A stretch of DNA of 64,000 nucleotides from an uncultured Alphaproteobacteria bacterium (GTDB lineage Bacteria; Pseudomonadota; Alphaproteobacteria; Sphingomonadales; Sphingomonadaceae), in assembly GCA_963781165.1 (NCBI GenBank), contig CAWADZ010000004.1, positions 33,975 to 97,974 of the forward strand, written 5' to 3'. The translations under genes were made by a program, and so were the position numbers. The notes under the pieces were generated by a model. It had not been told where the DNA came from and did no database searches. It saw nothing but the letters and a program-made list of their open reading frames with translations. Positions 408 to 18,253 of this stretch are shown here, piece by piece; the stretch's first letter is position 1, and each line of letters begins with the position of its first letter.

Positions 408-3400
408 TCAGAAGTCGAACCGGACGAGGAAGGTGTAACGGCGGTCGTTGCGAATGCGGACCGGAATGATCCGCGTGCCCTCGAAATCGAACTACAGAGC
501 TGGTCTGAGTGACTTCGTCCAGAAGGTTCACGCCCTGAACGCCGACTTTGATGTTTTCCGTCAGATCATAGAAGATCGACGCATCAAGCTGGCCGGTGCT
601 CTCTCCGTAAATCGGCGAGAACGGGAAGATCACATCGCGCGGTGTCTGAAGGAATTCTGACCGCCAGTTGTACGCGGCACGAGCAGAGAAGCCGGCAACT
701 TCGTAGAACAACGTCGCATTGACCGTATGTTCCGACATACCGGGCTGCGGCAAATCACCAAACGACATCACCCGAAGATGAGAAGTCGTTCGAGTCGATA
801 TAGGTGTAGGTGAACTGACCACCCAAATGCTGGAGCGGCCCCGGCAGGAATTCCCACACATCCTGATAGGCGAGTTCAACGCCCTGCAGCTTGGCACTAC
901 CGAAGTTGATTGGGCCATTGACTTCTACATCAATTGACACGCCGGAAGGACTGGTGAAGTCGCGGACCGTAGGGCCGAAGCCGAACAGATTGCGGAAGTC
1001 CTTGCGGAAAAACGCAGCCGTGATCGATCCAACATCATCAAAGTAATACTCGATCGACAGATCGTAATTGTCCGATTTCAATCGGGCGCAGCAATCTGTT
1101 GCCGGTATTGATGGCAAACAGCGGTCCAGTTTCGAGCGCGCCCGCCAATTCAAGCGAACGGGTGTTGTCGAAGATCGCACCGCCCGTGCGGAAGTCGGAA
1201 AGATCTGGCCGCGAGATGCCTTGCGAGAAAGCTACGCGCGCCAGCAAACCGTCGCCAAAATCAAGCTTTGCATTAAAGCTGGGGAGCCAGTTTTCGTACA
1301 CGATGTCAGAGCTGTCATCGATGATTTCGCCGGTAAAGGCCGCCGCAAATTCCGCCTGACGCGCTGCGCTTAGCGAACAGTACCCGGGCGCTTGCTGGCC
1401 TGGCTGAACGTTGCCGCAAGCCGCCGCGACTTCAGCGCCAGTTACCGTGCCATTCATATCTGCGTCGAAGAAATCGCCGAACGGGAAGTTGATCTCTCCA
1501 TCGGATTCAGTTGTCGTTTCAACGTAACGCAGGCCAATATTGCCCGACAGTTCCCAGCCGTTGGAGAAATACGTGCCGAAGTCGATACGGGCATAGGCCG
1601 CCTTCGTGGACTCGCTCACGTCGGAGATTTCACCCGGCAGGAAGACCGTGCCGTCCACATTGCCACCGCGTGCGCTGATCGGGAACCATGCGTTAGGGGT
1701 GAGAGTGAAGGCAGTGATCGCGTTGGCCTGACGTGTGACTTCACCGCTCAGATAATCGTCGAGCACATTGTCGCTGCCAAAGAAGAAGGCAGAGCCATTG
1801 CCGAGCGGCACCGGCGCATTGCCGCGCTGGAAGTTGTCACCGAACGGATTGCGCAACGTTTGCAGATTCGGGGAAATCGAACACATATGCGCCGCCACAA
1901 CCGAAGGCCTGGAAATCGCCGCAGTTCCAATTGCCGCCACGACCGGTCCATGGTGCACCAAGGTTGCCCCAGTTGGAGAAGTTGGCGCTGCGGGTTACGC
2001 GATTACGATCGGACCAGCGCGCGCCAAAGCGGGCGGTCTGGAAGAAGCCATCGTCGGAAATGTCATACTCGACATCGCCCTTCAGGCTGTAAAGTTCGCC
2101 TTCGTTGCGAACTTGGTTGTCCAGCAGGAACCAGAAGAGTGTGCGCGCAGGATCGTTGAAATATGCCGCGTCGGAAGTACCGGTGCTGGGATGCAAGGAA
2201 CTGTACACGGGGAGTGTTGCCAGAATTATCAATAAAGATATCGGTATATGTCTGCATCGCAGAGATAAACGCCATCTTCGTCCCGATCAGAGTTAATGAC
2301 CTGGCCTTCAAAAGTGAGGCGCAACCGGTCCGTCAATTCCATATAGACTTCTGCTGAGAAATCCTCGGTCGTCGCTTCATCTTCACGCTGGAAACGCAGA
2401 AGCTCCGTCGGAATGCCGGCAAGCCGCCGTTCGGATTGCCCTGTGTCAGCGTGCCGGTTTCGAAGAATCGAACCATTGAATGTCGGCGTGGTGCCCGGAG
2501 CAATAGTGGGGAACAGAGCGTCGTCGTTGACCAGAGCCCAGCATCGCAAATTCGTTCAACGAACCCTGAGTTTCGGCACGAAGATATTCCAGCGTCAGCA
2601 GGAAACGGCCATCATTGCTTTCGAACTGGCCCACTGCCGAATAGGCCTGACGGTCACGCGTCAGGGCGGTGGTACGCACACCCGCACCCTTGGGCACGAT
2701 GACGGTGCCGGCAGGCGGGAAGTTGCTCGCATCGAAGTTGGGATCGCCGAAATAGCCGCCCGAACCGACATTGACGAGCGCGCAGACAGCCGCTGTCGAG
2801 CGTGTCGGCGCGGTAGCAAGGATCGGTGAGCTGCGATGCGTCTGTGCGCGGTAACAAGTTCCTGCTGCGCATAACCAAGCTGCAGGCCAAAAGTACCGAT
2901 GCCGGTTTCAAAGGTGTTGGACACCAGGACGGAGAAGCCTGGCGACCACTCTTCGGCCAGATCGCCGTAGTTGCCTTCGATCGTTCCAGCAATCTGCAGG
3001 CCTGGATTGTCGAGCGGCTTACGCGTCACGAGGTTGACGAGGCCGGAAATATTCGCCCTCGATCATGTCGGCGCTGATGTTCTTGTAGACTTCGACGCGG
3101 CCCAGAAGCTCAGGCGACACATCGTTGAACGAAAGCGTACGACCGCCATTGGCCGAGAAAATGTCACGGCCGTTCAAGTTCGAAAGAACATATGGCAGGC
3201 CGCGGATGATTACGTTGGAACCTTCGACCGAGAAACGGTCAGGGTCATCGCGCTGCTCAAAGCGGGAGATGTTGACGCCAGGCACGCGCTGCAGCGCTTC
3301 TGCAACGGAGCGGTCAGCCAGTGCGCCAATATCTTCGGCTGTGATCACATCGACGAACAGTGTCGGCGTTTTCCTTGAAATCCTGCGCACTTTCGAGCGA

Positions 3401-3583
3401 GGCACGGAAGCCGCTGACGATGATAGTGTTTTCGGAAGCAGGATCGACCTGCTCTTCCGCATCTTCATCACCCGGCGCGTCCTGCGCAAGAGCAACACCG
3501 GGAACCGCGGCAACCAGCGCAATACTGGACACGGTGGCAAGCGTACGGACACGGTTGGTCGACATGATTATGGATTTGCGCAC
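408..3583 (-). pseudogene. TonB-dependent receptor (sugar-uptake type, ~1054 aa if repaired), split by at least 11 net +1 frameshifts; probably sequencing errors rather than a true pseudogene
   Basis: Fragments across the ORF track join into one TBDR: signal peptide, IIVSGFRASL TonB-box region, plug (VITAEDIGALADRSVAEALQRVPGV), barrel (SDNYDLSIEYYF) and C-terminus (NDRRYTFLVRFDF*, TGA at 408-410). 3176 bp minus 11 is exactly 1055 codons. GGGGAG RBS lies before GTG 3583. Confidence 0.85.
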
Positions 3584-3714: not shown

Positions 3715-3825
3715 TCCTGCATCCCTAGTGTAACATTTTTGCAAACATGGACCTTTGGAGGCGATCTTGCCCCCTATGCCGGAACAGCCGGACGGGGTAT
3801 TGACCCTGCAGGAGAGATTTTCGCA

Positions 3826-5334
3826 ATGGCAATCAAACATATCGTTATCGTCGGCGGCGGCACTGCTGGCTGGATGGCCGCAGCTGCATTGTCCCGCCTG
3901 CGCACCGGGCGAGAGCTGCAGATCACGCTGGTCGAGAGCGAGGCCATTGGTACGGTCGGAGTTGGTGAAGCAACCATTCCGCCATTTGTGGACTTTCAGC
4001 GCCTTCTGGAAATCGACGAAGCCGAGATGATGGCCGCCGTGCAAGGTTCGTTCAAACTGGGCATCCAGTTCGTCAACTGGGGCAATATTGGCGACAGCTA
4101 CATCCACCCGTTCGGCAATTACGGCTACGAGATGGGCGGCATGTCCTTCCACCATGTCTGGCACCACCACGCCAATAATGGGGACAAGCGGCCGATCCAG
4201 GTTTTCAATGCGGAAACCATGGCCGCCTATTTCGGCAAATTTGCCAAGACCGATGATCTGCGCCGCGACGATCTGCCGCCGATCAATTTCGCCTATCATA
4301 TCAACGCAACAGCCTATGCCGGCTTCCTGCGCAAATACGCTGAAAAGCGCGGCGTGGTGCGGCAGGAAGGCCGGATCAATGACGTGAAGCTGGACGGCGA
4401 AAGCGGATTTGTCTCCTCCATCACGCTGGAAAGCGGACAGGAAATAAGCGGTGATCTGTTTGTCGATTGCTCCGGCTTTCGCGGACTGCTGATCGAGCAG
4501 GCTCTGGAAACCGGGTATGAGGAATGGACCCAGTGGCTGCCGTGCAACCGCGCCGTGGCCCTGCCCTGCAACCGTGACGATGGCAGCCCGCCGCCGCCCT
4601 TCACCAAGGCAACGGCCCACCCCGCCGGCTGGCAATGGCAAGTGCCGCTGCAGCACCGCAACGGCAATGGCCATGTCTATTGCGACGCGTTCATGGAAGC
4701 GGACGAGGCGACCGACATCCTGATCCAGAACATGGCCGGCAAGCCCACGGCAGAGCCGAACCATTTGCGTTTCACGACCGGGCGGCGCAAGAAATTCTGG
4801 AACAAGAATGTGGTCGCTCTGGGCCTTGCGGGCGGCTTTATGGAACCGCTGGAATCAACCTCGATCCACCTCATCAATACCGGTATCAACAAGCTTATCG
4901 CGCTGATCTCGATGGACGGGGTGACAGAGGCTCAGGCGCAATCGTTCAACCGGCTGACAACCAAGGAATATGAGCGCATTCGCGACTTCCTCATCCTCCA
5001 CTACCACGCCACCAGCCGAACCGATTCCGAATTCTGGAATTACTGCCGCACCATGAGCGTGCCCGACAGCCTGACCGAGAAGATGGAGCTGTTCAAATTG
5101 AATGGGCAAATCTTCCGCGAGGATGACGAGCTGTTTACCGAGACCAGCTGGGCTGCCGTCATGATGGGGCAAGGCATTTCCATGGTCGGCGAAAATGCGA
5201 TGGCTGCAACGCTGGATCCGGTAGAAACGCGCAAGGAACTTGACGAGATTGAAAAATCGGTCCGCTTTCTGGTGCAGCATATGCCGGGACACGGCGAATA
5301 TCTGGCGAAGTACTGCCCCGCCCCAGCGGCTTGA
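3826..5334 (+). CDS. Flavin-dependent (tryptophan-halogenase family) halogenase
   Basis: GGGTAG FAD motif, catalytic Lys in GSFKLGIQFVNW, WQWQVP (WxWxIP-like) and FMEPLESTSI. Start placed at ATG 3826 (MAIKHIVIVGGG) after GGAG. Confidence 0.9.
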   Translation: MAIKHIVIVGGGTAGWMAAAALSRLRTGRELQITLVESEAIGTVGVGEATIPPFVDFQRLLEIDEAEMMAAVQGSFKLGIQFVNWGNIGDSYIHPFGNYGYEMGGMSFHHVWHHHANNGDKRPIQVFNAETMAAYFGKFAKTDDLRRDDLPPINFAYHINATAYAGFLRKYAEKRGVVRQEGRINDVKLDGESGFVSSITLESGQEISGDLFVDCSGFRGLLIEQALETGYEEWTQWLPCNRAVALPCNRDDGSPPPPFTKATAHPAGWQWQVPLQHRNGNGHVYCDAFMEADEATDILIQNMAGKPTAEPNHLRFTTGRRKKFWNKNVVALGLAGGFMEPLESTSIHLINTGINKLIALISMDGVTEAQAQSFNRLTTKEYERIRDFLILHYHATSRTDSEFWNYCRTMSVPDSLTEKMELFKLNGQIFREDDELFTETSWAAVMMGQGISMVGENAMAATLDPVETRKELDEIEKSVRFLVQHMPGHGEYLAKYCPAPAA

Positions 5335-5382: not shown

Positions 5383-5400
5383 TTGTCATAACTGAGTCAA
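5383..5400 (+). promoter_or_regulatory. Pho-box-like direct repeat upstream of the PhoB-like regulator
   Basis: TTGTCAT-AACT-GAGTCAA, 11-bp period, versus consensus CTGTCAT-N4-CTGTCAY. Confidence 0.5.
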
Positions 5401-5445: not shown

Positions 5446-6126
5446 ATGCACCGCGTCAGCATTTTCACGACCAATAACAAGGCGGCCAATTTCGAAGACT
5501 TCAGCCATGGCGAAGTCCGGTACCGCTTCGCCTTGCTCACGCCGGAAGGTCCAAGGCAGCTGGTCGAAGACGACAGCTGGGCTTTCGTCGATTGGGTGAT
5601 GGACGATCTGTCCGGCCTTGAAATGGTGCGCCGCCTGCGCGCCGATCCGCGCATGGCCGACGCCCATATCACCATGGTGCTGGAAGAGGATGACGCCGAA
5701 GACCGGCGCCGATCCTTGAAAGCAGGGGCCGACGATTACGCGGTTGCGCCGCTGGACCGGCAAGGCATGCTCGACCGCGTTCTGGCTCTTGATACAAGAG
5801 ACCGCCGGCTAACGGCCGACAAGCTGATCACGCTGGGCGATCTTGTCATCAATTCCGGCAGCGAGCAGGCTCGCTGGAAAGGCGAACGGATTGCACTGCG
5901 TCCCAACGAATTTCGCGTTCTGCGCTATTTCGCCGAAAATCCCGATCGCCTGTTCTCCCGGCAGGAACTGATCGAGGCGCTGGGCAAGGAAGGCGATCCG
6001 GAATATCTGCGCACCGTTGACGTCTGGATCAAGCGCCTGCGGTTCGGCCTGCGCGAAATCGGGGCGGGCGATCTGCTGCGCACCGTCCACGGCAAGGGCT
6101 ACGTTTTCGACACGCCAGAAACCTGA
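5446..6126 (+). CDS. OmpR/PhoB-family response regulator, PhoB-like, with atypical (pseudo-)receiver domain
   Basis: The winged helix has RTVDVWIKRLR and LRTVHGKGY. The receiver keeps VDW and GADDY but lacks the acidic pocket and the conserved Thr and Lys (YAVAPL). Confidence 0.85.
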   Translation: MHRVSIFTTNNKAANFEDFSHGEVRYRFALLTPEGPRQLVEDDSWAFVDWVMDDLSGLEMVRRLRADPRMADAHITMVLEEDDAEDRRRSLKAGADDYAVAPLDRQGMLDRVLALDTRDRRLTADKLITLGDLVINSGSEQARWKGERIALRPNEFRVLRYFAENPDRLFSRQELIEALGKEGDPEYLRTVDVWIKRLRFGLREIGAGDLLRTVHGKGYVFDTPET

Positions 6127-6166: not shown

Positions 6167-8866
6167 TTAGAATGTAATCGAAAGTGATGCGCCGATGGTC
6201 GTGCCGACATCGTAGGTGTTAATCTCTGCGCGGTCGATTCCGTTGGTCTGGAATTCCTCGTTTCCGCGACCAAAGATATTGCGCGCTTCCACTTTGATTT
6301 CAGCATCTGTGCCCAGCAGGTCCAGTCCCTGACGGAAAACCAGATCGACCCGCAGGCCGGGATCTTCCAGGATGTCGGGCAATCCCGATGTGCCCCTGCT
6401 GGTTACACGTTCGGTGGCATAATTCAGCAGCACGGTGAATTGCTGAAGCTGGTCGACGTCTTCCAGGCTGACCTGGAAATTGGCGAGATGATCAGATTGC
6501 CCCGTCAGCGGAACACCGTCGATAAAAAGGTTGGTGGCAGGCGTTGCGCCGCCGGGGAACAGCAGCGTTGTGTCTGCGGCATCAACGGTGATTTCCGAAC
6601 TGGTCCAGGTGTAGTTGGCAAATATCGCCAGTTCCTTGCTTTCGAAGAAGCCGCCAAGATTAACCAGGTCCACCGTGTACGCCAGGTCAGCTTCGATGCC
6701 GTAAAGCGTCGCATTGGGGGCATTTGCAAAACTGGTCAGCTGCGCATTGTCGGAAAAGCTCGAGAACGCCTCGATCGGGTTCTTGATATCCTTGTAGAAG
6801 CCCGCAACGGAAATGCGATCCTGCCGCCCGAGATAATGTTCGACGCGCACTTCGTAATTGGTCAGTTCGCTATCGATCAACAGCGGATTGCCGTTGAACT
6901 GGCGGTTCGTTTCAGGATCATAATATGTCTGGAAAATCAGCTCGCGAAACTGCGGGCGTGCAATGGTTCGCGACGCGGCTGCGCGAAGCTGAACATCCTC
7001 GATGGGTTCGAGCGTAACAGTCGCCGCGGGCAGCCAGTACTCGTTCTGCAAATTGGTTGTCGCACCTGTGCCTGTGACAACATCGAATACCTGCGCGGCA
7101 GCCACAGTCTGCACCGCTTCTTCATAACGAACTCCGGCATCGATGCTGAAGCCATCGAAGGGCTCCCAATTGATCTTTCCGTATCCGGCATGCACTTCCA
7201 GCGCGGCATCGAAGGCCGGGTCGGACTGGGTCGATTCGATCAGCCCGATGTCGTAAAATTCGATGATGGCATCACCCAGCAAGAGATCCGGGCGGAAGTT
7301 GCCGACAACGTCGGGAAAACTGGTCGGCGCGTTGAACAGGAATTCGCGGCGTTCCGAAAAACGTTCCGTGTCACTGTAGGCATAACCGACAGTCACGGCG
7401 AGGCTGTCAAACAGCGGATAGCTGAGATCGATCCCACCCGACCAAAGCTCTTCCTGCAGATCGGAAAATACAACCGAAGCATCGCCCGTCTGGCGGTCCA
7501 GCACGTTAATGAAGGAGTTGCTGAATTCACCGTTCGCATTGTCGCGCACATAGGTGAATGTATACTCGAATGGCGCTTCACGGTCGGTGCGGGCGTAACC
7601 ACCGCGCAGGTCAACACCCAGATCGCCAAATTCCAGCTCTGCCACCAGCTGGCTATCGATCAGCTGTCGTTCGAACCAGCCAGTCTGCTGCTGCTGGATA
7701 CTGTCATCATCCTGAAAATCCTCGCCCTGCGAAAGGCGGGCTAGCTTCAGTGTGTCGCGGATAAACAAATTGGTGAAACGGAACTGGTGATCGCCAATCT
7801 CAAGTCCGATGCCGAGCATCGCGTTGGCCAGAATGCGGTTGTCGGTCACGAGATCATTGAAATCGCTATCGAAGGAAAAGTCCGCCAGTACAGATTGCGA
7901 CGTAATGTCGCGGGTGCGCCATTTGTTGCTGATGGAACCGGTGAGGACGAACCCCAGGACTCCGTCGCTTCCGACATCGACCGATGTCCCTGCAGTCAGG
8001 CTGGCGGACCAGTTTGCCGGGATATCGCCAATCTTCTGCAGCAGCACGAGATTGGGATTGCCCAGCTGGAAAGCGATATCCGCCTGCGTGACCGGGGCAT
8101 CATTGAAATTTTGAGCGGAATCGAGCGGAATGTCGCTCAATTGCAGGCCACTGCCGAAATAGGTCTGAAGCGCGGGCGGTGCATCGCGCGTGCCATCGTC
8201 GAAGCCGAACCAGTCGTAATCGGAACCGTAATAGGAAATGCCGTTGTGGAAGGTGGTTTCCGTATTGCCGCTGATGCTGCCGCCAACGGTCAGGAAGCTT
8301 TCATCGGGAATCGCGCGGGTGGTCAGATTAATAACGCCGCCGCCAAACTCGCCGGGAAAGTTGGCCGAATAGGTTTTTTGAACAAGGCTGGACGCCACAA
8401 CGTTGGTCGGGAAAATGTCCAATGGCACAACGCGGCTGAGCGGCTGCGGCGAAGGCAGTGGCAGGCCGTTCAGCAGGGCCAGCGAATACCTGTCGCCAAG
8501 GCCGCGGACATAGACGAATCCCGCACCCTGAACGGAAAGGCCTGTCACCCGTCCCAGCGCGCCAGCGATATCGCCCTCGCCGGTTCGCGCGATTTGCTCG
8601 GTCGAAAGAACACTGACGACTTGAGAGGAATTCTGCACCGGATCACGGTTGATGCGGCCGGTCACGATGATTGAACCGCCGGGGACGGAAATGTCAGGCT
8701 GTTGCTGTTCGTCATCCTCCGGATCGGCCGCCTGGGCATCGGCAGCCTGGTCATCGACATCCTGCTGCGGCGGCGAGCCGGCATCCTGCGCGAATGCCGC
8801 AGCCGGAAATGTCAGCGCAGTTGAAAGGAGCAGCAGTGCCGCCAGCTGGTTGCCAGTGGTCTTCAT
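6167..8866 (-). CDS. TonB-dependent receptor (~899 aa)
   Basis: Signal peptide, IIVTGR, plug (GDIAGALGRVTGLSV; YVRGLGDRYS; LDIFP), barrel, C-terminal Phe (SITF). GAGGG RBS before ATG 8866. Confidence 0.92.
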   Translation of the reverse strand: MKTTGNQLAALLLLSTALTFPAAAFAQDAGSPPQQDVDDQAADAQAADPEDDEQQQPDISVPGGSIIVTGRINRDPVQNSSQVVSVLSTEQIARTGEGDIAGALGRVTGLSVQGAGFVYVRGLGDRYSLALLNGLPLPSPQPLSRVVPLDIFPTNVVASSLVQKTYSANFPGEFGGGVINLTTRAIPDESFLTVGGSISGNTETTFHNGISYYGSDYDWFGFDDGTRDAPPALQTYFGSGLQLSDIPLDSAQNFNDAPVTQADIAFQLGNPNLVLLQKIGDIPANWSASLTAGTSVDVGSDGVLGFVLTGSISNKWRTRDITSQSVLADFSFDSDFNDLVTDNRILANAMLGIGLEIGDHQFRFTNLFIRDTLKLARLSQGEDFQDDDSIQQQQTGWFERQLIDSQLVAELEFGDLGVDLRGGYARTDREAPFEYTFTYVRDNANGEFSNSFINVLDRQTGDASVVFSDLQEELWSGGIDLSYPLFDSLAVTVGYAYSDTERFSERREFLFNAPTSFPDVVGNFRPDLLLGDAIIEFYDIGLIESTQSDPAFDAALEVHAGYGKINWEPFDGFSIDAGVRYEEAVQTVAAAQVFDVVTGTGATTNLQNEYWLPAATVTLEPIEDVQLRAAASRTIARPQFRELIFQTYYDPETNRQFNGNPLLIDSELTNYEVRVEHYLGRQDRISVAGFYKDIKNPIEAFSSFSDNAQLTSFANAPNATLYGIEADLAYTVDLVNLGGFFESKELAIFANYTWTSSEITVDAADTTLLFPGGATPATNLFIDGVPLTGQSDHLANFQVSLEDVDQLQQFTVLLNYATERVTSRGTSGLPDILEDPGLRVDLVFRQGLDLLGTDAEIKVEARNIFGRGNEEFQTNGIDRAEINTYDVGTTIGASLSITF

Positions 8867-8928
8867 CGGGAAATCCCTCATGGTACGATCCGGTATTTTG
8901 CGCGGGCCGGAAAGGCCTTCACGCAGGG

Positions 8929-8980: not shown

Positions 8981-10561
8981 TCAATTAAAAACCGGGATGC
9001 TCGTGCAAGCGCCGGTGTTGCCGCCGAAGCTGATTGCCGACGAATCGCAGGTCCAGCCTTGCGTCCAGTCGTTGGAAGAGCTGACGGCTCCGATGAAACT
9101 GGTCGCTTCGAAGAAGCCGCCCAGCGACGTCACATCGAAAACCGGGGCAAAGCCATCTTCGCCGGAACCGTTAAGGTATCCATTCACCAGCGTGTTCACG
9201 AAGGACTTGTTGTTACCGGTGCCTGCATCGAACGCGGCTTCTGCCTGCGCGGCTGTCACACCGCTGCTGCCATCACGGAAGTCCGTGGCGCAGTCGAGGG
9301 CAACCGACTGGAAGCGCGGCGGACCGACATCGTCAAGCCCGGCATTGGCTGCGCGGATCGTTTCGGGAAGGTCGATGCGCACACATGCCGTGCCGCCTGC
9401 CGACGCATCCCAGATCAACGTGTTGTACAGGCCGTAATCCGTACCGCCACGAATACGCACCACCTGATCGCCGTCCTGACGCTGGATGAAAGTGGCATTG
9501 GCGATAGTCGTATTCTGGCGCGGGGTCTGATCCTGAAGGCCGTTGTTCGAATCCGCCTCTATGATGGCATCCCCCGCACCTGCGCGCTGGGCTGCGATGA
9601 CGAACTGCATGTTCGCCTTCACACCCGTGTCGGTATCAAGCGAGTCGTCCTCTGCACCTGCGACGATCAAGCGCTTTATGTTTACGAATCCGCCGAAGAA
9701 TTCGACGCCATCGTCGGATGAATTGACCGATTGAATATTGCTGAGCGTAGTGCCTGAACCGATCCCGCCGGTTGTCAGCGATTGCAATTCATTGTCGCCG
9801 GAAAGAACGAAGCCGGAATACCGGATCTGGACAAAGCTCATCGTGCCGGAACTGTCGTTATTCGTGGCACCGCCGAAGAATGACGGCGAAACCGCGCCTT
9901 CGACCTGCCGCTCACAAGCGACTGTGCCGGGGACTGCGCCCGGGGCAACGCAATCGGTGACCGGAGCGCGGCCTGAAAGCACCACCCCGCCCCACTGGCC
10001 GGACGAATCATTGTTGTTCAGGCCAAGGATATTGTCCCGGCTGGTGAAGATGATCGGCTCGCTCGCGGTGCCAACAGCGTTGATCGCATTGCCGCGTGTG
10101 ACATTCAGAAAAGAGGACCCGGTCGCGTATACAATAACGCCGGGCTCGATTGTCAGTGTGACGTTGGTGTCGTTCAGACCATCGGAGGCGTCCGGTGCGG
10201 CTCCGCCATCGGTGCCGACATTCACTTCGCCAGGCAGGCGGTAAAGCAAGCCGGGAATTTGCGGCAAAGTGGAGGAAGTATTGAACCGCAGCGGCGTCGC
10301 ACACACGCGCCATCTGCCTTCGGGACCGGTGATCGTTCCTTCATCGGTCAGCCCTTGGGCATCGGAAATGGTCGGACAGCCATTGGCCGGAGTGACCTGT
10401 GCAGTGGTCGCCGTCGGGCTTGGCGTCGGTGTGGGAGTCGCTGGCGGGTTGTTGATCGTAATGTTGCCGCCCGTGCCGGGCGACGCGATCTCATCCGGGC
10501 CGCACGCAGCAAGCGCCAGAATTGAACTACCAAGGATAAGTGAACGGGAAAGTTTGGTCAC
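8981..10561 (-). CDS. Outer-membrane/surface lipoprotein with probable beta-helix repeats, TBDR-associated, function unknown
   Basis: Lipobox LAAC, PT linker, repetitive beta-strand motifs (SGDNELQSLTTGGIGSGT; DDGVEFFGG; DDSLDTDTG). GAGGGG RBS before GTG 10561. Confidence 0.8.
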   Translation of the reverse strand: MTKLSRSLILGSSILALAACGPDEIASPGTGGNITINNPPATPTPTPSPTATTAQVTPANGCPTISDAQGLTDEGTITGPEGRWRVCATPLRFNTSSTLPQIPGLLYRLPGEVNVGTDGGAAPDASDGLNDTNVTLTIEPGVIVYATGSSFLNVTRGNAINAVGTASEPIIFTSRDNILGLNNNDSSGQWGGVVLSGRAPVTDCVAPGAVPGTVACERQVEGAVSPSFFGGATNNDSSGTMSFVQIRYSGFVLSGDNELQSLTTGGIGSGTTLSNIQSVNSSDDGVEFFGGFVNIKRLIVAGAEDDSLDTDTGVKANMQFVIAAQRAGAGDAIIEADSNNGLQDQTPRQNTTIANATFIQRQDGDQVVRIRGGTDYGLYNTLIWDASAGGTACVRIDLPETIRAANAGLDDVGPPRFQSVALDCATDFRDGSSGVTAAQAEAAFDAGTGNNKSFVNTLVNGYLNGSGEDGFAPVFDVTSLGGFFEATSFIGAVSSSNDWTQGWTCDSSAISFGGNTGACTSIPVFN

Positions 10562-10623: not shown

Positions 10624-10679
10624 GCATTAGGCGCGCCGCGTGACACTTTGTTTGCGTGCGTGTGACACCTTTGTGAATC
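10624..10679 (-). promoter_or_regulatory. Putative PhoB-type promoter for the lipoprotein-TBDR operon
   Basis: Minus strand: GATTCAC-AAAG-GTGTCAC-N15-GTGTCAC, all in 11-bp phase (10673, 10662, 10640). Exactly 10 bp separate the last half-site from a -10-like TAATGC (10624-10629). Confidence 0.55.
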
Positions 10680-10782
10680 CGGCTATAAATTGGACAAGCG
10701 CCTGCAAAGATGCAGTTTTTCTTTTCCACAGCAGATCGATTGTGACACGGGGCGAGTTCAAATATTTCAGATTTGTGACAAT

Positions 10783-10848: not shown

Positions 10849-11217
10849 ATGATTGTAACACTCGTTCTCGCACCGCTTTTGCTAGCTCAGGCCGCGACCG
10901 AACAGATGGTCGAACAGCAATATGAAAGGGTGGATGTCGCCTATGTAGAACTGGCCGAAGGCGATGCAGAAGCGGCTGTAACCCGGCTGGAGGCTGAATT
11001 GGCCGAACATGGCGGCCATCCTGCCCTCTTTATCAATCTGGGCAGTGCCCACGCACGTTTGGGCAATCTTGAGCGCGCCGAGTTCTTTTACCGCGCCGCA
11101 CGCGATTGTGACGAGGAATATGAAATGGAACTCGCCGACGGTCGCTGGATGGCTTCGCGCGATGCGGCCCGCCTTGCGCTGGCCAGCGTCGAGCTGGAAG
11201 CGCTTGCAACGCGTTAG
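10849..11217 (+). CDS. Small secreted protein with a TPR-like repeat
   Basis: AGGAG RBS before ATG 10849, hydrophobic signal peptide, and the TPR-like helix pair PALFINLGSAHARLGNLERAEFFYRAA. Confidence 0.7.
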   Translation: MIVTLVLAPLLLAQAATEQMVEQQYERVDVAYVELAEGDAEAAVTRLEAELAEHGGHPALFINLGSAHARLGNLERAEFFYRAARDCDEEYEMELADGRWMASRDAARLALASVELEALATR

Positions 11218-11271: not shown

Positions 11272-11310
11272 CGGCCCGGCGAAACTTCTTCGCCGGGCCG
11301 TTTTGTTATT
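11272..11310 (+). terminator. Rho-independent terminator
   Basis: Perfect 12-bp stem CGGCCCGGCGAA / TTCGCCGGGCCG with a 5-nt loop, followed by TTTTGTTATT. Confidence 0.8.
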
Positions 11311-11375: not shown

Positions 11376-12014
11376 ATGATTCTGCGTTCTGGCATTTGTG
11401 TATCTGCTTTTCTGCTGGCCGCCGTTGCTGCGGTTCCGGCAAGCGCAGATGTGCTGGAAATCAGCGCGGATGGCGAAGTCAGCTGGATCGCAGGCGGCGC
11501 GCCGGGTTCGGGTGCTGACGCAGTGGTTTACGCCGGTGCGATCGGCGAAGTGTCCGCCGATGTAATGTCCTTCCTGCCCGACAATGCGGTCGCTGATACA
11601 CGATTGCACGCTGCTGGAATTCCTGCAGCCTACACCGCCACCATCCATGATCTGGCGGAGCGATTTGACCTTAGCCCCGCGTTGCTGGAAGCGGTCGTCT
11701 GGCAGGAGAGTCGCTGGCGCGCGAACGCCATTTCGCCTGCTGGTGCTCGCGGTCTGGCGCAATTAATGCCCGGTACGGCGCGGGATTTGGGCGTTGATCC
11801 TGATGATCCTTTCGCCAACCTCGAAGGCGGCGCCCGGTATTTGCGTGAACAGCTTGACCGGTTTGACGGCGATCTGGAACGCGCCCTTGCTGCTTACAAT
11901 GCGGGCCCAGGACGGGTCATCCGTTCAGGCGGCGTTCCGCAAATTCGTGAAACACAATTATACGTGGCGGCCATTATGGGCCGCCTGTCCGACCACTCCC
12001 GGAGTCCAGAATAA
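11376..12014 (+). CDS. virB1: Lytic transglycosylase (VirB1-like)
   Basis: Signal peptide and SLT motifs AVVWQESRW, GARGLAQLMPGTA, ALAAYNAG; first gene of the virB cluster. Confidence 0.8.
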   Translation: MILRSGICVSAFLLAAVAAVPASADVLEISADGEVSWIAGGAPGSGADAVVYAGAIGEVSADVMSFLPDNAVADTRLHAAGIPAAYTATIHDLAERFDLSPALLEAVVWQESRWRANAISPAGARGLAQLMPGTARDLGVDPDDPFANLEGGARYLREQLDRFDGDLERALAAYNAGPGRVIRSGGVPQIRETQLYVAAIMGRLSDHSRSPE

Positions 12015-12016
12015 CA

Positions 12017-12313
12017 ATGCACATTTTTGCCCGTATTGCAGCATTTCTCACATTGCTGCTGCCCTCTGCTGCCTTCGCTCAGGATCCCGCCGGGTCCGGC
12101 CCGATCAACAGCGCCTTTGGCTGGATGCGCGACACTCTGCTTGGCACGGTTGCCACGACAGTGGCAGTCATGGCCGTCGCCGCAGTTGGTTTCATGATGC
12201 TGACCGGACGGGTCAACTGGCGTTTTGGCGCGACGGTAATCATCGGCGTTTTCATCATCTTTGGTGCAGCCTCCATCGTGGCAGGCATCCAGGGCGCTGC
12301 GGCTGTTGGATAG
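12017..12313 (+). CDS. virB2: TrbC/VirB2 family pilin
   Basis: Signal peptide plus two hydrophobic helices; position between virB1 and virB3. Confidence 0.85.
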   Translation: MHIFARIAAFLTLLLPSAAFAQDPAGSGPINSAFGWMRDTLLGTVATTVAVMAVAAVGFMMLTGRVNWRFGATVIIGVFIIFGAASIVAGIQGAAAVG

Positions 12314-12325
12314 GCAAGACGCGCA

Positions 12326-12607
12326 ATGCAAATGACCCGCTACCCCGTCCACCGCGCGCTTACCCGGCCACAGATGTTTGCGGGCGTGACGTATAATTAC
12401 TTCGTGATCAATGCGCTGGTCACAGTGGAAGCGTTCCTGATGCTGAAAAGCTTCTGGATCGTGCCCATCCCGATCATCATGCACGCCATCGGCTATTTCG
12501 CCTGTCTGCGTGAACCGCGATTTTTCGACCTTTGGATCACCAAGGTCAGCAAGTGTCCCCGCGTAAAGAATTACAAACGCTGGGGCTGCAATTCATACGC
12601 TGCCTGA
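12326..12607 (+). CDS. virB3: Type IV secretion protein VirB3
   Basis: ALTRPQMFAGV motif, two TM segments, directly before virB4. Confidence 0.88.
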   Translation: MQMTRYPVHRALTRPQMFAGVTYNYFVINALVTVEAFLMLKSFWIVPIPIIMHAIGYFACLREPRFFDLWITKVSKCPRVKNYKRWGCNSYAA

Positions 12608-12628
12608 CCGGCAGCCGGAGCAAATGCG

Positions 12629-15070
12629 ATGACAACCACAGGCCCCAAGAAATGGCTGGGCGCCGCAGCATGGAGCGCCAAGGAAGCGCATGCTGGCGAC
12701 CGCCTGCCCTATGCACGGCTGGTCGATGCTGGCGTCATGCTGCTGCGCGATGGATCCTTGATGAGTGCGCTGCAGGTGCCCGGACTGTTGTTCGAAACCG
12801 AAGATACAGATGCGCTGAACGCCCATGCCGCCACGCGGGAGATCATGCTTCGTTCGAACCTCGATGCGCGGTTCGTCATGTATCACCACGTCATTCGCCG
12901 CCGGGTCGCCGTGGAACTGGACGCGCGCTTCGAGGATCCCCTGGCAGCGCACATCGACCAGCGCTGGCGCGACAAGCTTTCGTCAGGATCGCTGTTCGTA
13001 AATGATCAGTTCGTGACACTGGTGCGCCGCCCGGCACGCGGAAAGGCCGGTTTCGTGGAACGGGCGAGCAAGGCCATCCGTCGCCGATCCAACGAAGCGG
13101 AAGATATCGATCCCAAGGACCTGCGGTCCCTGCGCGCAGCAATGCAGGCGCTGGCCGCGAGCCTTGGCGATTACGGAGCGCAGCCGCTGGGCGATTACAC
13201 CGGACCATCGGGGGCTGCAAACAACGAACTGCTGGAGCTGCTCTCCGCGCTCTATAATGGTGAAATGCGTCCCGTGCGTCGCCCCGATATCGAAACCGAT
13301 ATCGGGCGCATGATTCCGTATCGCCGTGCCAGTTTCGGCATCGACGCAATGGAGTTGCGCGGATCGGGCGGAGCCGATTTCGGCTCCATGCTGAGCCTCA
13401 AAGACTATCCCGAAGCGACCAGCGCCGGCCTGCTCGATTCGATGCTGCGCCTGCCCTATGAAATGATCGTGACAGAGAGTTTCGCGCCGCAGGAACGCCA
13501 GACCGCACGGGAAAAGATCGACCTTGCTATCCGCCGCCTGAAAAGCGCCGATGAGGACGCGCAGGCCGAACGGGCGGACATGATGGCAGCGCGCGACGAA
13601 CTCGGCGCAGGCTCAGTCGGGTTCGGCGATCATCACCTGTCGGTGCTGGTCCGCGAAAGCACGCTGGAACGGCTGGATGATGCCACTGCCGCTGTCGCAG
13701 CCAGCCTTGCCGATACGGGCGCGATTACAGTGCGCGAAGATACCAATCTGGAGCCTGTCTTCTGGGGGCAATTCCCCGGCAACGAGCAGTACCTGGTGCG
13801 CCGCGCGATGATTTCCACCGCCAACATGGCAAGCTTTGGCAGCCTTCACGGCTTTGCGCTGGGGCAGGCAGAGGGCAATCATTGGGGCGAAGCTGTCACC
13901 TTGCTCCAGACGACCAGCTCCACGCCGTTTTTCTTCAATTTCCACCACGGCGATCTGGGCAATTTCTCGGTGATCGGGCCTTCGGGTTCGGGCAAGACCG
14001 TGGTGATGAACTTCCTCGCGGCACAGGCGCAGAAATTCTCCCCGCGCACCATCCTGTTCGACAAGGATCGCGGCGCGGAACTGTTCATTCGCGGGATCGG
14101 CGGCAATTATGACCGCATCAGGTCCGGCAATCCGACCGGCTTCAATCCCTTGTCCCTTCCAGATACGCCTCTCAATCGCGGTTTTCTGCGCGATTGGCTG
14201 AGCGTTGTGCTGGACGCACAAGGTCCGGAAGAGCTTTCGACGATCGCGGCTGCAGTTGATGCCGCCTACGCCAACGACAGCTCCCTGCGCCGCCTGCGCC
14301 ATTTCAAGGAATTGGTGTCCGGCAGCCGCCGCCCGCAGCCCGGCGATCTGGCAGACCGCCTTTCAGCATGGATTGATGACGGCGAACACGGCTGGCTGTT
14401 CGATAATCAGACCGATAATCTTGATCTGTCCACCCGCGTCATGGGCTTTGACATGACCGCGCTGCTGGAAAATCCCAAGCTGCGTACGCCGGTGATGATG
14501 TATCTGTTCCACCGCATCGAGGAACGGCTGGACGGCCAGCCTACCATGATTCTGATCGATGAAGGTTGGAAAGCGCTGGATGACGAGGTGTTCGCCGCGC
14601 GTATCCGCGATTGGCTGAAAACGTTGCGCAAACGCAATGCCCTGGTCGGTTTCGCCACGCAAAGCGCACGCGATGCGCTGGACAGCAGGATTTCTACGGC
14701 ATTGGTCGAACAGACCGCCACCATGATTTTCATGCCCAATGCCCGCGCCCGGCCAGAGGATTATTGCGACGGTTTCGGCCTGACGGAGCATGAATTCGCG
14801 CTGATCCGCAGTCTGCCTGCGCACAGCCGGTGTTTCCTTGTCCGCCAGCCCGATGCGAGCGTGGTCGTGCGGCTTGATCTGTCCGGCGCGCCCGAAGTGC
14901 TGACCATGCTGTCCGGCCGTGAAAGCACCGTGCGGCGGCTTGATCTGCTGCGCGAGGCGGTCGGCAATGATCCTTCGCAGTGGTTCCCCGCGCTGACCAA
15001 TCATGCATGGCCCGGACCTGCGGGCGTCATTACGGAAACCGACGTTCGCGGCCGGGAGGCGGCCGAGTGA
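12629..15070 (+). CDS. virB4: Type IV secretion ATPase VirB4
   Basis: Walker A GPSGSGKT, FDKDRG, Walker B ILIDEGW, and the RKRNA...FATQS motif; 813 aa. Confidence 0.95.
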   Translation: MTTTGPKKWLGAAAWSAKEAHAGDRLPYARLVDAGVMLLRDGSLMSALQVPGLLFETEDTDALNAHAATREIMLRSNLDARFVMYHHVIRRRVAVELDARFEDPLAAHIDQRWRDKLSSGSLFVNDQFVTLVRRPARGKAGFVERASKAIRRRSNEAEDIDPKDLRSLRAAMQALAASLGDYGAQPLGDYTGPSGAANNELLELLSALYNGEMRPVRRPDIETDIGRMIPYRRASFGIDAMELRGSGGADFGSMLSLKDYPEATSAGLLDSMLRLPYEMIVTESFAPQERQTAREKIDLAIRRLKSADEDAQAERADMMAARDELGAGSVGFGDHHLSVLVRESTLERLDDATAAVAASLADTGAITVREDTNLEPVFWGQFPGNEQYLVRRAMISTANMASFGSLHGFALGQAEGNHWGEAVTLLQTTSSTPFFFNFHHGDLGNFSVIGPSGSGKTVVMNFLAAQAQKFSPRTILFDKDRGAELFIRGIGGNYDRIRSGNPTGFNPLSLPDTPLNRGFLRDWLSVVLDAQGPEELSTIAAAVDAAYANDSSLRRLRHFKELVSGSRRPQPGDLADRLSAWIDDGEHGWLFDNQTDNLDLSTRVMGFDMTALLENPKLRTPVMMYLFHRIEERLDGQPTMILIDEGWKALDDEVFAARIRDWLKTLRKRNALVGFATQSARDALDSRISTALVEQTATMIFMPNARARPEDYCDGFGLTEHEFALIRSLPAHSRCFLVRQPDASVVVRLDLSGAPEVLTMLSGRESTVRRLDLLREAVGNDPSQWFPALTNHAWPGPAGVITETDVRGREAAE

Positions 15071-16275
15071 CCAGCACCGTTGCCAGCGTCGGGATCGAAT
15101 GCCAGCGCCAGATGGAATCTGTCGGTGCGGGCATCGGTGCGTCCCTTCGCGGCGTCGATTGCGCGGCAAATGCCATGGCAGAAGCGGCCTTCAACCGGCT
15201 GTTTACCGAAGGCGGATTTCTTGGTCCTACGCTGACTATTGTCCTGACACTTTTCGTGGCGGTGCTCGGCTTTGCGCTGATGACGGGGCGTACGCGGATT
15301 GGCCTTGCCTCGCTCACGCCGCGGATGGTGACGCTGGTGGCAGTCATCACTTTCGCGACAAGCTGGTTTGTTTTTCAAAGCGTGTTCTGGAACCTGGCCG
15401 TCCTGGGGCCCGACTCCATTGCGACGGGTCTGATGGGCACAGACGGTTCTGCCACCACCATTTTCGCGGACAAGCTGGATGCCGTCATGCTCTCGCTTAT
15501 GCAGGCATCGGGCGGTGATGCGATGGATGCCAACACCTCCATTTTCTCGCCCCCGGGTCTGCTGTGGTCAGGCGGCACCATGCTGCTGCTGGGCACTGTA
15601 GGCGTTCTGGCGACCACCAAGATTGCGCTCGCCATCCTGATGGGGATCGGTCCGATTTTCATTGTGATGGCGCTGTTCAACGGCACGCGCGGACTGTTCA
15701 TCGGATGGCTGAAAGGCGTTGTGATGATGGCGATGGCGCCGCTGTTCGCGGTGCTTGGCGGATCGCTGATGCTGGAACTCGCGATCCCTGTCCTCTCCAG
15801 TCTTGCGTCCAGCCCAGGCGAGATTGATGTGCGCCCGGCAATGGCATTCTTCATGATCGGCGCTGTCCACCTTGCGCTCATGTTCATGATCCTAAAGGTG
15901 CTGTCGACCATGGTATCGGGATGGACAGTATTCGGCCTGGCGCGCAGCGACCGGGATGACGCGGGCAGCTACGCGCCCGCCGCCGCTGCGGCAGCTGCTG
16001 TTCGCGCCGCGCCGCCTTCCGCCCTCACGACGACAACGGCAAGCGACCGTGCCGCGCAGGCGGGCTCTGCTGCTGCGCGCGATATTCGTGTGGCCGCAGC
16101 AATGCCGATGGCGGCCAATGACAGTAATGGCATCACCCATACGCGCGAAACCCGCATCATCGGCGGGGCTGGCGCTACACAGACCGGCTCTTCCGGCACC
16201 ACACCCTCTCGCGCCCGCGGCATCGGTAGCCGCTTCAAATCGGCGCCCATTCGCTCCACGGAGAAAATGCAATGA
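15067..16275 (+). CDS. virB6: Type IV secretion protein VirB6 (TrbL/VirB6)
   Basis: Polytopic membrane protein (KIALAILMGIGPIFI...FNGTRGLFIGWL). GTGA start overlaps the virB4 stop. Ala/Thr-rich C-terminal tail. Confidence 0.85.
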   Translation: MTSTVASVGIECQRQMESVGAGIGASLRGVDCAANAMAEAAFNRLFTEGGFLGPTLTIVLTLFVAVLGFALMTGRTRIGLASLTPRMVTLVAVITFATSWFVFQSVFWNLAVLGPDSIATGLMGTDGSATTIFADKLDAVMLSLMQASGGDAMDANTSIFSPPGLLWSGGTMLLLGTVGVLATTKIALAILMGIGPIFIVMALFNGTRGLFIGWLKGVVMMAMAPLFAVLGGSLMLELAIPVLSSLASSPGEIDVRPAMAFFMIGAVHLALMFMILKVLSTMVSGWTVFGLARSDRDDAGSYAPAAAAAAAVRAAPPSALTTTTASDRAAQAGSAAARDIRVAAAMPMAANDSNGITHTRETRIIGGAGATQTGSSGTTPSRARGIGSRFKSAPIRSTEKMQ

Positions 16276-17072
16276 TCCGCACCGGCCTGATGGCAGTGCT
16301 TCTGGCGACTGCACTGGTGGCAACACCGGCGATAGCGCAGCGCGACCCGCGCATGATCGAACGCCTTTACGATTCCGCCGAAGTGGTGCGCATCGAAGGC
16401 AAGACCAACGTGCAAACGACCATCCGCTTTGGCGATGACGAGTCGATTGAAAACGTCGCGATTGGCGATTCGCAGGCTTGGCAGGTCACGCCCAACCGCC
16501 GGGCCAATCTGTTGTTCGTAAAACCGCTGGCCCCGCGTGCGACCACAAACATGACCGTGGTTACCAATCGCCATACCTATCTGTTCGATCTGGTGGCCAA
16601 TCCCAATGCACGCACCCCGCTGTATATTTTGACCTTCACCTATCCGGAGGAACCGGAGGCTGAGCAGGATGAGGCGCGGCTGGCATCAGCGCAGCCTGCT
16701 GTCACTGCCAACGCGCTGGAAATGGCGGCAGCAAGCGACGATTATGCCGTGCTCGACCCTGCGGCCCTGAATTTCGCATGGGCCGGCACGGGCGCGCAAG
16801 GCCTGCTTCCGGCAGAAATCTACGACAATGGAGAGGCGACTTTCCTGACATGGCCAGCAGGGCAACCAATGCCCGCCATTCTGCTGAAAGATCAGCAGGG
16901 CAACGAAGGTCCGGTCAATTTTGCCACGCGCGGCGATGTGATCGTGCTCGATCTCGTGCCCGCCGAGATTATCCTGCGATCGGGCGATGATGTCGCCTTG
17001 CTCACCAATCAGGGCGACGCAGGCGCCTATCTTGCCGACGGCACTGCACGCCGCGACCCTGAACGTAACTGA
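16272..17072 (+). CDS. virB9: Type IV secretion outer-membrane core protein VirB9 (TrbG/VirB9)
   Basis: Signal peptide; DPRM...Y, IRFGDDESIENVAIGDSQAW, NLLFVKP, TNMTVVTNRHTYLFDL, IYDNGEATF. Confidence 0.9.
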   Translation: MIRTGLMAVLLATALVATPAIAQRDPRMIERLYDSAEVVRIEGKTNVQTTIRFGDDESIENVAIGDSQAWQVTPNRRANLLFVKPLAPRATTNMTVVTNRHTYLFDLVANPNARTPLYILTFTYPEEPEAEQDEARLASAQPAVTANALEMAAASDDYAVLDPAALNFAWAGTGAQGLLPAEIYDNGEATFLTWPAGQPMPAILLKDQQGNEGPVNFATRGDVIVLDLVPAEIILRSGDDVALLTNQGDAGAYLADGTARRDPERN

Positions 17073-17085
17073 ACGGAGAACTGCC

Positions 17086-18246
17086 ATGAAACTTGCCATG
17101 CGCCTTCCGGAAAAGAGCAGCGGCGTCGCCAATGATGCCGATCCCCGCGATGATGAGACCACCGAGGTTATCGATCTTGCGAGCCGCACGTCATATCCCG
17201 CCGTCGCCAATCGCAAGGGCAAATCCGACGCGCTTGGCCTTGCTGCGGGTATCGCGTTTGTCGCGCTGATTGGTGCCGCAACCCTGTGGGGACTTAGCGC
17301 TGGCGACACTGGCGATAGCACCGCGGATCTGGCAGCAACTGAGACAGCGCCTCTACCGCCAACCGGCATTGTGCCCGTTGGCACTGCGCCCACAGACGGC
17401 CTGCCAAGCGCCAATGCGGGTGGCAATGGCATTCCGATGGCCGATCCAGCCCCCTCACCTGTGCTCTCTCGCACGCCTGACGCCTATGTGGCGGCCGGAC
17501 CGAGCATCAATCCCTATTCCTCTCCAACGCTTGTATTCGATGGCGGCGTTGCGCCCTCTGCGGCCGCTGCCAATGCCGCCGCAGCCGAAGCTGCCGCAGC
17601 AGGCGCTCCGCAGAATGCAGTGGTGCCCGGCGCCGGTGCAGCGGGCGAATTTGCCGCGCGTATTGGCGGCGTTGGCGGCGGCACCGCCGTTGCCCGTCAG
17701 GATATCAATCCGGCGACCACGGTGACGCAGGGCACGATGATCCCCGCGATCCTCGAAACCGCGATCAATACCGACGTACCCGGCTTCGTGCGCGCCGTGG
17801 TGAGCCAGGACGTGCGCAGTTTTGACGGCGGGCGCGTGCTCATCCCGCGCTCCAGCCGCCTTGTCGGGCAATACCAGTCCGGCCTTCAGGCAGGCCAACG
17901 CCGCGCCTATGTCATCTGGCAGCGGGTTATCCGCCCCGATGGTGTGACCGTACAATTACAGAGCCCCGCGACCAGCTTCGATGGCACGGCGGGCATTGCC
18001 GGCGATGTCGACAATCATTTCTTCAGCCGGTTTGGTTCGGCCATGCTGCTGTCGGTAATCGGCGGACTGACCAATGTGGCAAGCGGCGGGGCGTCGATTG
18101 TCCTTGGCGGCGGGCAGAGCGCAGCCAACACCGCCTTGCAGCAGGACGGCCAGCGTCCGCCGACCGTGCGCGTTCGCATGGGTGAGCCGATCCGCGTTTA
18201 CACCGCGCGCGATCTCGACTTCGGTCAGGCACCGCAGGCCCGCTGA
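17086..18246 (+). CDS. virB10: Type IV secretion protein VirB10 (TrbI/VirB10)
   Basis: GGAG RBS before ATG 17086; TM helix, Pro/Ala-rich linker, TrbI domain (GTMIPAILETAINTDVPG; LIPRSSRLVGQY; VDNHFFSRFG). Confidence 0.92.
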   Translation: MKLAMRLPEKSSGVANDADPRDDETTEVIDLASRTSYPAVANRKGKSDALGLAAGIAFVALIGAATLWGLSAGDTGDSTADLAATETAPLPPTGIVPVGTAPTDGLPSANAGGNGIPMADPAPSPVLSRTPDAYVAAGPSINPYSSPTLVFDGGVAPSAAAANAAAAEAAAAGAPQNAVVPGAGAAGEFAARIGGVGGGTAVARQDINPATTVTQGTMIPAILETAINTDVPGFVRAVVSQDVRSFDGGRVLIPRSSRLVGQYQSGLQAGQRRAYVIWQRVIRPDGVTVQLQSPATSFDGTAGIAGDVDNHFFSRFGSAMLLSVIGGLTNVASGGASIVLGGGQSAANTALQQDGQRPPTVRVRMGEPIRVYTARDLDFGQAPQAR

Positions 18247-18253
18247 TCCTGCG

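Follow-up and report, generated by a model that had tools for sequence, protein, structure and literature searches.

Pseudo-receivers are defined as domains with a recognisable receiver fold that lack at least one of the five conserved active-site residues (PMC12632262). ChxR of Chlamydia and HP1043 (HsrA) of Helicobacter have degenerate receivers, dimerise and bind DNA without phosphorylation, ChxR doing so on direct repeats (PMC3960148, PMC8345958). GlnR of actinomycetes is an orphan regulator of the OmpR/PhoB family that is not phosphorylated and in which, as far as the title of Lin et al. (2014), cited in PMC12632262, tells, the conserved Asp stabilises the homodimer. In the BldM-WhiI pair of Streptomyces, an atypical orphan regulator acts as a heterodimer with another response regulator (PMC4125116), and in Agrobacterium the virG gene has a promoter of its own, P1, that responds to phosphate starvation (PMC4285021). 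We analysed an atypical regulator gene of the PhoB family (5446..6126, plus strand) in a stretch of 64,000 nucleotides from an uncultured alphaproteobacterium of the Sphingomonadaceae (contig CAWADZ010000004.1, positions 33,975 to 97,974; this whole stretch is called the window, and coordinates refer to it). The original prediction had seen in this gene a PhoB paralogue with an intact recognition helix, a degenerate receiver domain and a Pho box of its own. What had been observed is confirmed; the role inferred from it, a phosphorylation-independent relay, amplifier or competitor, is supported in part, in its descriptive points. By the definition given above, the product of the gene counts as an atypical response regulator whose receiver is a pseudo-receiver, because a receiver fold is detectable (by fold, and in Pfam just under the cut-off) and the acidic pair, the switch Thr and the conserved Lys are absent. 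We propose that it regulates the adjacent block of genes, which includes a TonB-dependent receptor (TBDR) and a type IV secretion system (T4SS), independently of phosphorylation, and that its own synthesis is possibly driven by phosphorylated PhoB (PhoB~P). We give this statement as a whole about even chances; a phosphorylation-independent local regulator is held with higher confidence than the cascade.

The gene is an intact open reading frame (ORF) of 226 amino acids with a high content of G and C at third positions. ATG 5446 was taken as its start, and not the upstream TTG 5425, because the orthologues share the Met and begin at the same M-x-R-V/I-S-I. In Pfam the winged helix Trans_reg_C is complete (1.6e-18), and Response_reg reaches 29.9 bits, just under its cut-off of 30.2, as a partial match to residues 47-112. 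The best NCBIfam model is PhoB (TIGR02154), which covers residues 47-222, leaves the first 46 residues unmatched and scores 126.8 bits, below its equivalog cut-off of 296.2; the next models reach at most 97 bits (25 matches listed of 55). Sequence and fold searches of the PDB returned regulators of the OmpR/PhoB family only, and no database record matched the exact sequence of the window protein. Once family members are set aside, the next-best matches in genomes are PhoBs of Sphingomonadales, at ~38-40% identity. Both the intact PhoB-like ORF and its relation to PhoB as a paralogue are borne out. The gene is not linked to phoR, pst or phoU (its immediate neighbours are a Trp-halogenase-like gene on one side and the TBDR gene on the other), whereas the canonical PhoB of the same order sits in phoR-pstCAB-phoU-phoB clusters. 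The annotation “PhoB” (KEGG-style names in some sources) is misleading for this family.

The pseudo-receiver comprises residues 1-116 (5446..5793, plus strand), which were aligned to E. coli PhoB (b0399). The acidic pair E9/D10 of PhoB is replaced by T9/N10 (with N11 next), the switch Thr T83 by L79 and the conserved Lys K105 by A101 (motif YAVAPL), and the phospho-acceptor D53 is kept as D49 (motif VDW, nt 5590-5592), all of which had been read correctly from the sequence at the outset; Y102 of PhoB is likewise kept, as Y98. Four of the five catalytic residues are thus lost and D49 alone is left, which makes the active site incomplete and, because the Asp is present, also sets the protein apart from aspartate-less receivers (ALR). 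The same substitutions run through the family. In a comparison of 73 family members with 81 canonical PhoBs of Sphingomonadales/Erythrobacteraceae, the position of T83 was Leu in all 73 (Thr in 80 of the canonical proteins and Ser in one), that of K105 was Gly or Ala in 71 (Lys in 81/81), and that of D53 was still Asp in 71 (Asp in 81/81). The acidic pair, E-D in every canonical PhoB, is reduced in the family to at most one acidic residue; a D near this position was counted in 48/73 relatives, a number that depends on the alignment, and there is none in the window protein.

The AlphaFold model (mean pLDDT, the predicted local distance difference test, 85.5; N-terminal blocks 84-89) begins with beta1, continues with a beta-hairpin that replaces alpha1 and alpha2, and then follows the normal order beta3-alpha3-beta4-alpha4-beta5-alpha5. 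As modelled, the receiver is remodelled beyond point mutation. Alpha1 is the usual kinase-docking helix of receivers. A histidine kinase gene is absent beside the regulator, as had been stated, and the whole 64 kb encodes neither a PhoR-like protein nor a second response regulator; no kinase was found among the neighbouring genes at six genome loci with gene tables either. With four of its five catalytic residues lost, no alpha1 predicted and no kinase present, the regulator probably works without phosphorylation and no longer depends on a histidine kinase. The domain does not look like one in decay: mean identity within the family is 84% over residues 47-116, 74% over the DNA-binding domain and 55% over residues 1-46, and residues 47-116 are, by this measure, the most conserved stretch of the protein. 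A pseudogene was considered and is excluded by the same 84% identity together with an ORF that is intact in more than 100 clusters.

The winged-helix DNA-binding domain (residues 125-224; 5818..6117, plus strand; Pfam Trans_reg_C) carries, by alignment to PhoB, the recognition helix RTVDVWIKRLR (nt 6010-6042, plus strand), which is identical to RTVDVHIRRLR of PhoB at 9/11 positions. The C-terminal domain of the AlphaFold model fits the PhoB effector domain and its Pho-box complex (1GXP, 1GXQ) with target-normalised template modelling (TM) scores of 0.85-0.88 and a root-mean-square deviation of ~2 Å. In 1GXP, T194, V197 and R201 of E. coli PhoB are the residues that read the TGTCA half-site, and R193, R203, T217 and Y223 those that contact phosphates. 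T194, V197, R201, R203, T217 and Y223 (PhoB numbering) are invariant across the family, as is the phosphate-contact position R193; the residues that read DNA are thus PhoB-like. The regulator has a PhoB-type winged helix with these contact residues, though H198 is Trp. The exchange of H198 for Trp is found in 73/73 family members (and in 29/31 more distant relatives) and is a family signature together with W184 to Gly and G185 to Lys.

A word-indexed search returned 1,542 matches to the regulator, the top 120 of them at 67-85% identity, and the named relatives among these belong nearly all to Erythrobacter, Aurantiacibacter, Altererythrobacter, Alteraurantiacibacter or Croceibacterium; relatives within the Erythrobacteraceae show 68-85% identity. 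By an exhaustive search of representatives, full-length relatives were found down to ~36-45% identity; nearly all of the distant relatives inspected have Leu or another hydrophobic residue for the Thr and Gly or Ala for the Lys. A scan of genome contigs with a generic GADDY pattern yielded mostly canonical PhoBs and two family loci, and the family survey rests on the metagenome scan. Two subfamilies can be told apart (read over loci L094-L173, L002-L007, L087 and L175): subfamily 1, to which the window protein belongs, has a WIK helix, a His in the wing and the loop E/D-Y-L, and subfamily 2 has a WIG or WVG helix, an Arg in the wing and the loop I-D-E. Plasmids (PLSDB) gave no DNA match to the regulator and protein matches at the level of canonical PhoB only (at most 38% identity), all listed ones that carry an annotation being phoB; in PLSDB, the family is not plasmid-borne. 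Judged from these comparisons, the regulator is a PhoB-derived paralogue in a large, conserved and uncharacterised family, and not a one-off. Our literature search found no paper on this family, nor on a PhoB paralogue or atypical regulator tied to a T4SS in the group; the “PhoB2” of a Caulobacter paper was considered and is irrelevant to it.

Paralogue and canonical PhoB coexist. Both proteins were found in five named genomes (E. alti, Erythrobacter sp. EC-HK427, Altererythrobacter sp. KTW20L, Aurantiacibacter sp. MUD61 and an Erythrobacter metagenome-assembled genome), and in EC-HK427 both genes are located on one chromosome (LR701479.1), phoB at ~2.28 Mb, behind porin O/P-pstSCAB-phoU, and the paralogue at ~1.46 Mb, ~0.8 Mb apart. 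The existence of a canonical phoB elsewhere, a point that the original prediction had left to be confirmed, is thereby established for these genomes.

The regulator gene is convergent with the TBDR gene (6167..8881, minus strand; Pfam Plug and TonB_dep_Rec_b-barrel), upstream of which, in the same orientation, lies the gene of a 525-aa lipoprotein (8981..10561, minus strand) that shows Beta_helix_4 (PF28492) in relatives and for which searches of PDB sequences and NCBIfam returned nothing. Across the divergent region, the virB side begins with the gene of a small exported TPR protein (10849..11217, plus strand; weak Pfam TPR matches, all below gathering cut-offs); this gene is followed by a terminator-like hairpin (11272..11300, plus strand; a 12-pair stem with 10 G-C pairs, then a T run). 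Then comes the operon of virB1 (SLT), virB2, B3, B4, B6, B9, B10 and B11 (11379..19279, plus strand; Pfam), and since the hairpin is strong, virB1 has a promoter of its own. VirB6 resembles TrwI; homologues of VirB5, B7, B8, VirD4 and a relaxase were not detected among the ORFs of the T4SS operon. The order of the block, i.e., the regulator convergent with a ~900-aa TBDR and a ~525-aa Beta_helix_4 lipoprotein, then the divergent TPR gene and virB1, B2, B3, B4, B6 onward, is identical in A. atlanticus, Altererythrobacter sp. B11, E. alti, EC-HK427, Pontixanthobacter and Porphyrobacter, and is maintained down to a metagenomic relative with 44% identity (L087). The metagenome survey covered 76 unique loci, 38 of which were informative (at least 6.8 kb of downstream sequence); the whole block was kept in 31 of these, and the TBDR and beta-helix genes in four more. 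One locus (L106) has the TBDR, beta-helix and TPR genes and no virB within range. Whenever a TBDR gene was found at surveyed loci with enough downstream sequence, the beta-helix gene stood just upstream of it. The other flank of the regulator varies among loci (gcvTHP, a peptidase M49 gene or the Trp-halogenase-like gene), and the regulator is therefore placed at the edge of the block. One copy of the T4SS is present in all 14 Erythrobacter genomes that have been compared and has co-evolved with them, as a core and vertically inherited system (PMC4919336).

PhoB-type boxes were searched in the 64-kb window as TGTCA-N6-TGTCA with at most one mismatch. Five matches were found against 2.6 expected, which by count alone is not above chance; unlike the count, the position and conservation of the boxes are significant. 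Box A, TGTCATAACTGAGTCA, the regulator's own direct repeat (5384-5399, plus strand), lies 62 nt upstream of the ATG. A box ~61 nt (56-69 nt) upstream of the regulator start is present in 69/72 metagenome loci (the remaining three carry one with two mismatches) and, at the same distance, in 7/7 genome loci, although the upstream regions around it are otherwise diverged (~63% pairwise identity in a lenient global alignment). The predicted Pho box of the regulator gene thus stands by its position and conservation, even though the count in the window is at chance level. Box B, CGCAA-ACAAAG-TGTCA(C), is promoter-proximal to the beta-helix/TBDR operon (10641-10656, minus strand), with an extra TGTCAC half-site at 10662-10667; the arrangement AAAGAAAC-TGTCAC-N8-CCTAG precedes the beta-helix gene in most of 14 upstream regions inspected, from a set of 37 extracted, and box B shares its build with the phoB promoter box at one locus (L174). 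In the divergent region, box C, CTGCAACAAAACTGTCAT with an adjoining TGTCAC (10775-10800, minus strand), overlaps the probable -35 element of the TPR gene, which is read from the opposite strand, and is conserved at the 7 genome loci. Box D, TGTCATGCCGCTGTCA, a perfect repeat with a GC-rich spacer (11322-11337, plus strand), lies behind the terminator at 11272-11300; downstream of it, a conserved, -10-like TAAGCA follows after ~6 nt and the virB1 ATG after 57 nt. A box in this place was found upstream of virB1 in 31/32 metagenome loci. The virB1 promoters have no other -35 element and for this reason look activator-dependent. The three intergenic stretches of the block, 559 bp in all, contain 8 half-sites of the form TGTCAY, a 12-fold enrichment over the overall density of 1.2 per kb (Poisson 6e-7), and the rest of the 64 kb yielded no further box located in a promoter.

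For comparison, canonical Pho boxes were taken from 12 loci, where they lie downstream of phoR or upstream of pst genes, and from the region in front of phoB in EC-HK427. In this order they have the form TGTCAT-[CGA]AA[AC]C-TGTCA, with an A-rich spacer (e.g., TGCAA-CAAATA-TGACA-TGAAAC-TGTCAT). Boxes A and B share this A-rich canonical build, whereas box D consists of two perfect TGTCA half-sites around its GC-rich spacer. Over the four central positions of the spacer, the pst boxes have on average 2.83 A/T, box A 2.30 (43 unique sequences) and box D 1.00 (25 unique sequences), and tests that ignore shared ancestry give p = 4e-7 for A versus D, 1.4e-5 for pst versus D and 0.08 for pst versus A. 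Such a division into two spacer classes favours a cascade over simple redundancy.

How the regulator might work can be outlined as follows. The half of the receiver from beta3 to alpha5, with D49, would keep the protein dimer-competent through the alpha4-beta5-alpha5 face; by analogy with the Asp of GlnR, a likely role of D49 is stabilisation of the homodimer. The PhoB-like winged helix would then bind TGTCA-N6-TGTCA direct repeats at local targets: the virB1 promoter above all, the divergent beta-helix/TBDR and TPR promoters, and possibly the regulator's own promoter. The virB1-virB11 operon is the probable main target, and its repeat would occupy the -35 position, as in PhoB-activated promoters. 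Because the promoters of the regulator and of the beta-helix gene carry boxes of the pst/phoB type, phosphate limitation probably induces the regulator gene through PhoR-PhoB~P, and the T4SS/TBDR block would then belong to the Pho response as a second-tier branch that needs no kinase of its own. Circumstantial links to phosphate are ppk and ppx after virB11 and the phosphorus genes upstream of the regulator in Altererythrobacter sp. B11. In the window, ppk and ppx (19339-23030, plus strand) follow beyond a gap of 59 bp, and no PhoB-type box was found in this gap upstream of ppk. The upstream flank in B11 (L004, 1-7595) encodes a phospholipase C/phosphoesterase, a metallophosphoesterase, DUF5690, a DAO oxidase, a HAD hydrolase and a PHO4 phosphate transporter, and looks like a phosphorus-scavenging set.

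Several points weigh against this proposal. All of the boxes could in principle bind canonical PhoB~P. The residues of the loop by which E. coli PhoB contacts sigma-70 (W184, G185, V190, E191 and D192) are G, K, E, Y and L in the regulator, and with this loop replaced, the regulator need not activate in the way PhoB does; bound at -35, it could act as a repressor instead. The phospho-acceptor Asp is retained, and according to the review of pseudo-receivers, substitutions of the acidic pair (DD), T or K are not always fatal to phosphotransfer (PMC12632262). Block genes are missing within 7 kb at three of the 38 informative metagenome loci (L119, L132 and L158; 57-69% identity), and distant family members (41-43% identity) do not stand beside a T4SS on their short contigs. 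No RNA runs were found that contain this sequence. The statistics of the spacer classes do not allow for shared ancestry, and the wing residue (R219H), which had been considered as the cause of the GC-rich virB1 spacers, is ruled out, because loci of subfamily 2 (L006, L007 and 43 others), which have Arg in the wing, have GC-rich spacers as well. The exchange of His for Trp in the recognition helix is left as a candidate for the spacer preference.

The boxes might instead be sites of PhoB~P at which the paralogue modulates canonical PhoB, competing with it, anti-activating or forming heterodimers through the alpha4-beta5-alpha5 face, and thereby damping or retuning the Pho response at the block. 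We consider this unlikely, though it accounts for half-sites that are indistinguishable from Pho boxes and lie over the -35 position, and for a transactivation loop in which all residues are altered. Heterodimers with an atypical regulator are known from BldM-WhiI (PMC4125116), and on the dimer face R91, D100, D101, Y102 and R115 (PhoB numbering) are common to PhoB and the paralogue; E96, E111 and K117 of the same face, however, differ from PhoB. The substitute loop (GK-x-GDPEYL; in the other subfamily, GK...IDE) is itself strongly conserved, as a working surface would be, and this speaks against modulation of PhoB, as do the virB1 promoters, which look activator-dependent for want of another -35 element, and their GC-rich spacers, which are unlike the pst/phoB boxes of the same order.

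Similarly doubtful is a dedicated local regulator with no link to phosphate, to which all four boxes would belong, autoregulation included, and on which a ligand or partner would act at the N-terminal half or the Asp pocket, so that “Pho box” would be a misnomer. It would fit the restriction of promoter-located boxes to the block and the position of the regulator at the variable edge of a conserved block. It would also agree with F19, G35, P36 and L39, which are invariant in the otherwise remodelled N-terminal region of the family, with the very strong conservation of residues 47-116, and with box spacer positions that differ between the two regulator subfamilies, a difference that is confounded by shared ancestry and is weak evidence. 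Such a regulator leaves unexplained, however, why its own box and that of the beta-helix gene match the phoB promoter box of the same genome in the A-rich spacer and the TGCAA/TGTCA build, and why ppk and ppx follow virB11 and, in one relative, genes for a phospholipase C homologue, a metallophosphoesterase and a PHO4 transporter stand just upstream. Least probable of these alternatives is a slow or weak conventional regulator whose D49 still receives phosphate, with low efficiency, from acetyl phosphate or from a distant kinase (PhoR cross-talk): D49 is kept in 71/73 family members, Y102 is kept as well, and substitutions of DD, T or K need not abolish phosphotransfer (PMC12632262), but the window protein has lost four of five catalytic residues, has no predicted alpha1 docking helix and no kinase nearby, and the Asp retained in GlnR serves, going by the title cited above, dimerisation and not phosphorylation.

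A bolder version of the proposal, which we think improbable, would have a kinase-free mimic of PhoB that uses the half-site of PhoB, and maybe pairs with PhoB~P through the conserved alpha4-beta5-alpha5 face, place a core, VirD4-less T4SS and a TBDR/beta-helix uptake pair under phosphate control. If this were true, the T4SS of the Erythrobacteraceae would be part of phosphorus scavenging, e.g., through uptake or release of DNA or attack on neighbours, and the spacer class of its box would decide whether a promoter answers to PhoB~P or to the paralogue. The Erythrobacteraceae are abundant marine heterotrophs, and a conserved regulator with operator-like sites offers an experimental handle on their core T4SS. 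The presence of a pseudo-receiver paralogue and its parent in one cell, with a common half-site, raises the question of how the two are kept apart, whether by the spacer or by the exchange of His for Trp.

Outside the conserved block, the gene directly upstream of the regulator encodes a Trp-halogenase-like flavoprotein (3739-5334, plus strand; PF04820 in relatives), which in E. alti and EC-HK427 adjoins a cluster of TBDR, GH16, LacI, MFS and GH3 genes that resembles a beta-glucan utilisation locus. Further upstream, a second TBDR gene (411-3583, minus strand) is broken into at least seven reading-frame segments, as compared with the intact 1057-aa orthologue of E. alti (L005), with its neighbours intact; it is a pseudogene or contains a run of local indel errors.

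Among the known systems, the regulator is closest to PhoB, its best-scoring family, with which it shares the winged-helix fold, nine of eleven residues of the recognition helix, the conserved T194, V197 and R201, and TGTCA direct repeats spaced by 11 bp at -35-like positions near its genes. It differs from PhoB in its score (126.8 versus 296.2 bits), in the lack of the acidic pair, Thr and Lys and of a predicted alpha1 and alpha2, in the absence of linkage to phoR, pst and phoU, in H198W, W184G and G185K, and in its coexistence with a true PhoB; by score, active site and gene context it is not a PhoB. VirG is likewise a regulator of the OmpR/PhoB family tied to a VirB-type T4SS (the control of virB by the present regulator being putative). 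VirG has a conventional receiver that is phosphorylated by VirA, and it binds the vir box and not TGTCA repeats. The regulator of the window, in contrast, has a degenerate receiver, no kinase in the window and TGTCA-type repeats in place of vir boxes, and VirG is absent from its 25 NCBIfam matches listed of 55. BldM-WhiI, of the NarL/FixJ-type family and from a different organism, serves as a precedent for a heterodimer with PhoB. GlnR belongs to an unrelated lineage, scores well below PhoB against the regulator and has a nitrogen regulon and a different DNA motif. ChxR and HP1043, each of which dispenses with phospho-acceptor chemistry in its own way, are of independent origin, not derived from PhoB and without a coexisting parent that uses the same half-site. 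By analogy, the regulator would work most like GlnR, ChxR and HP1043, and would have arrived at this mode of action independently, from PhoB.

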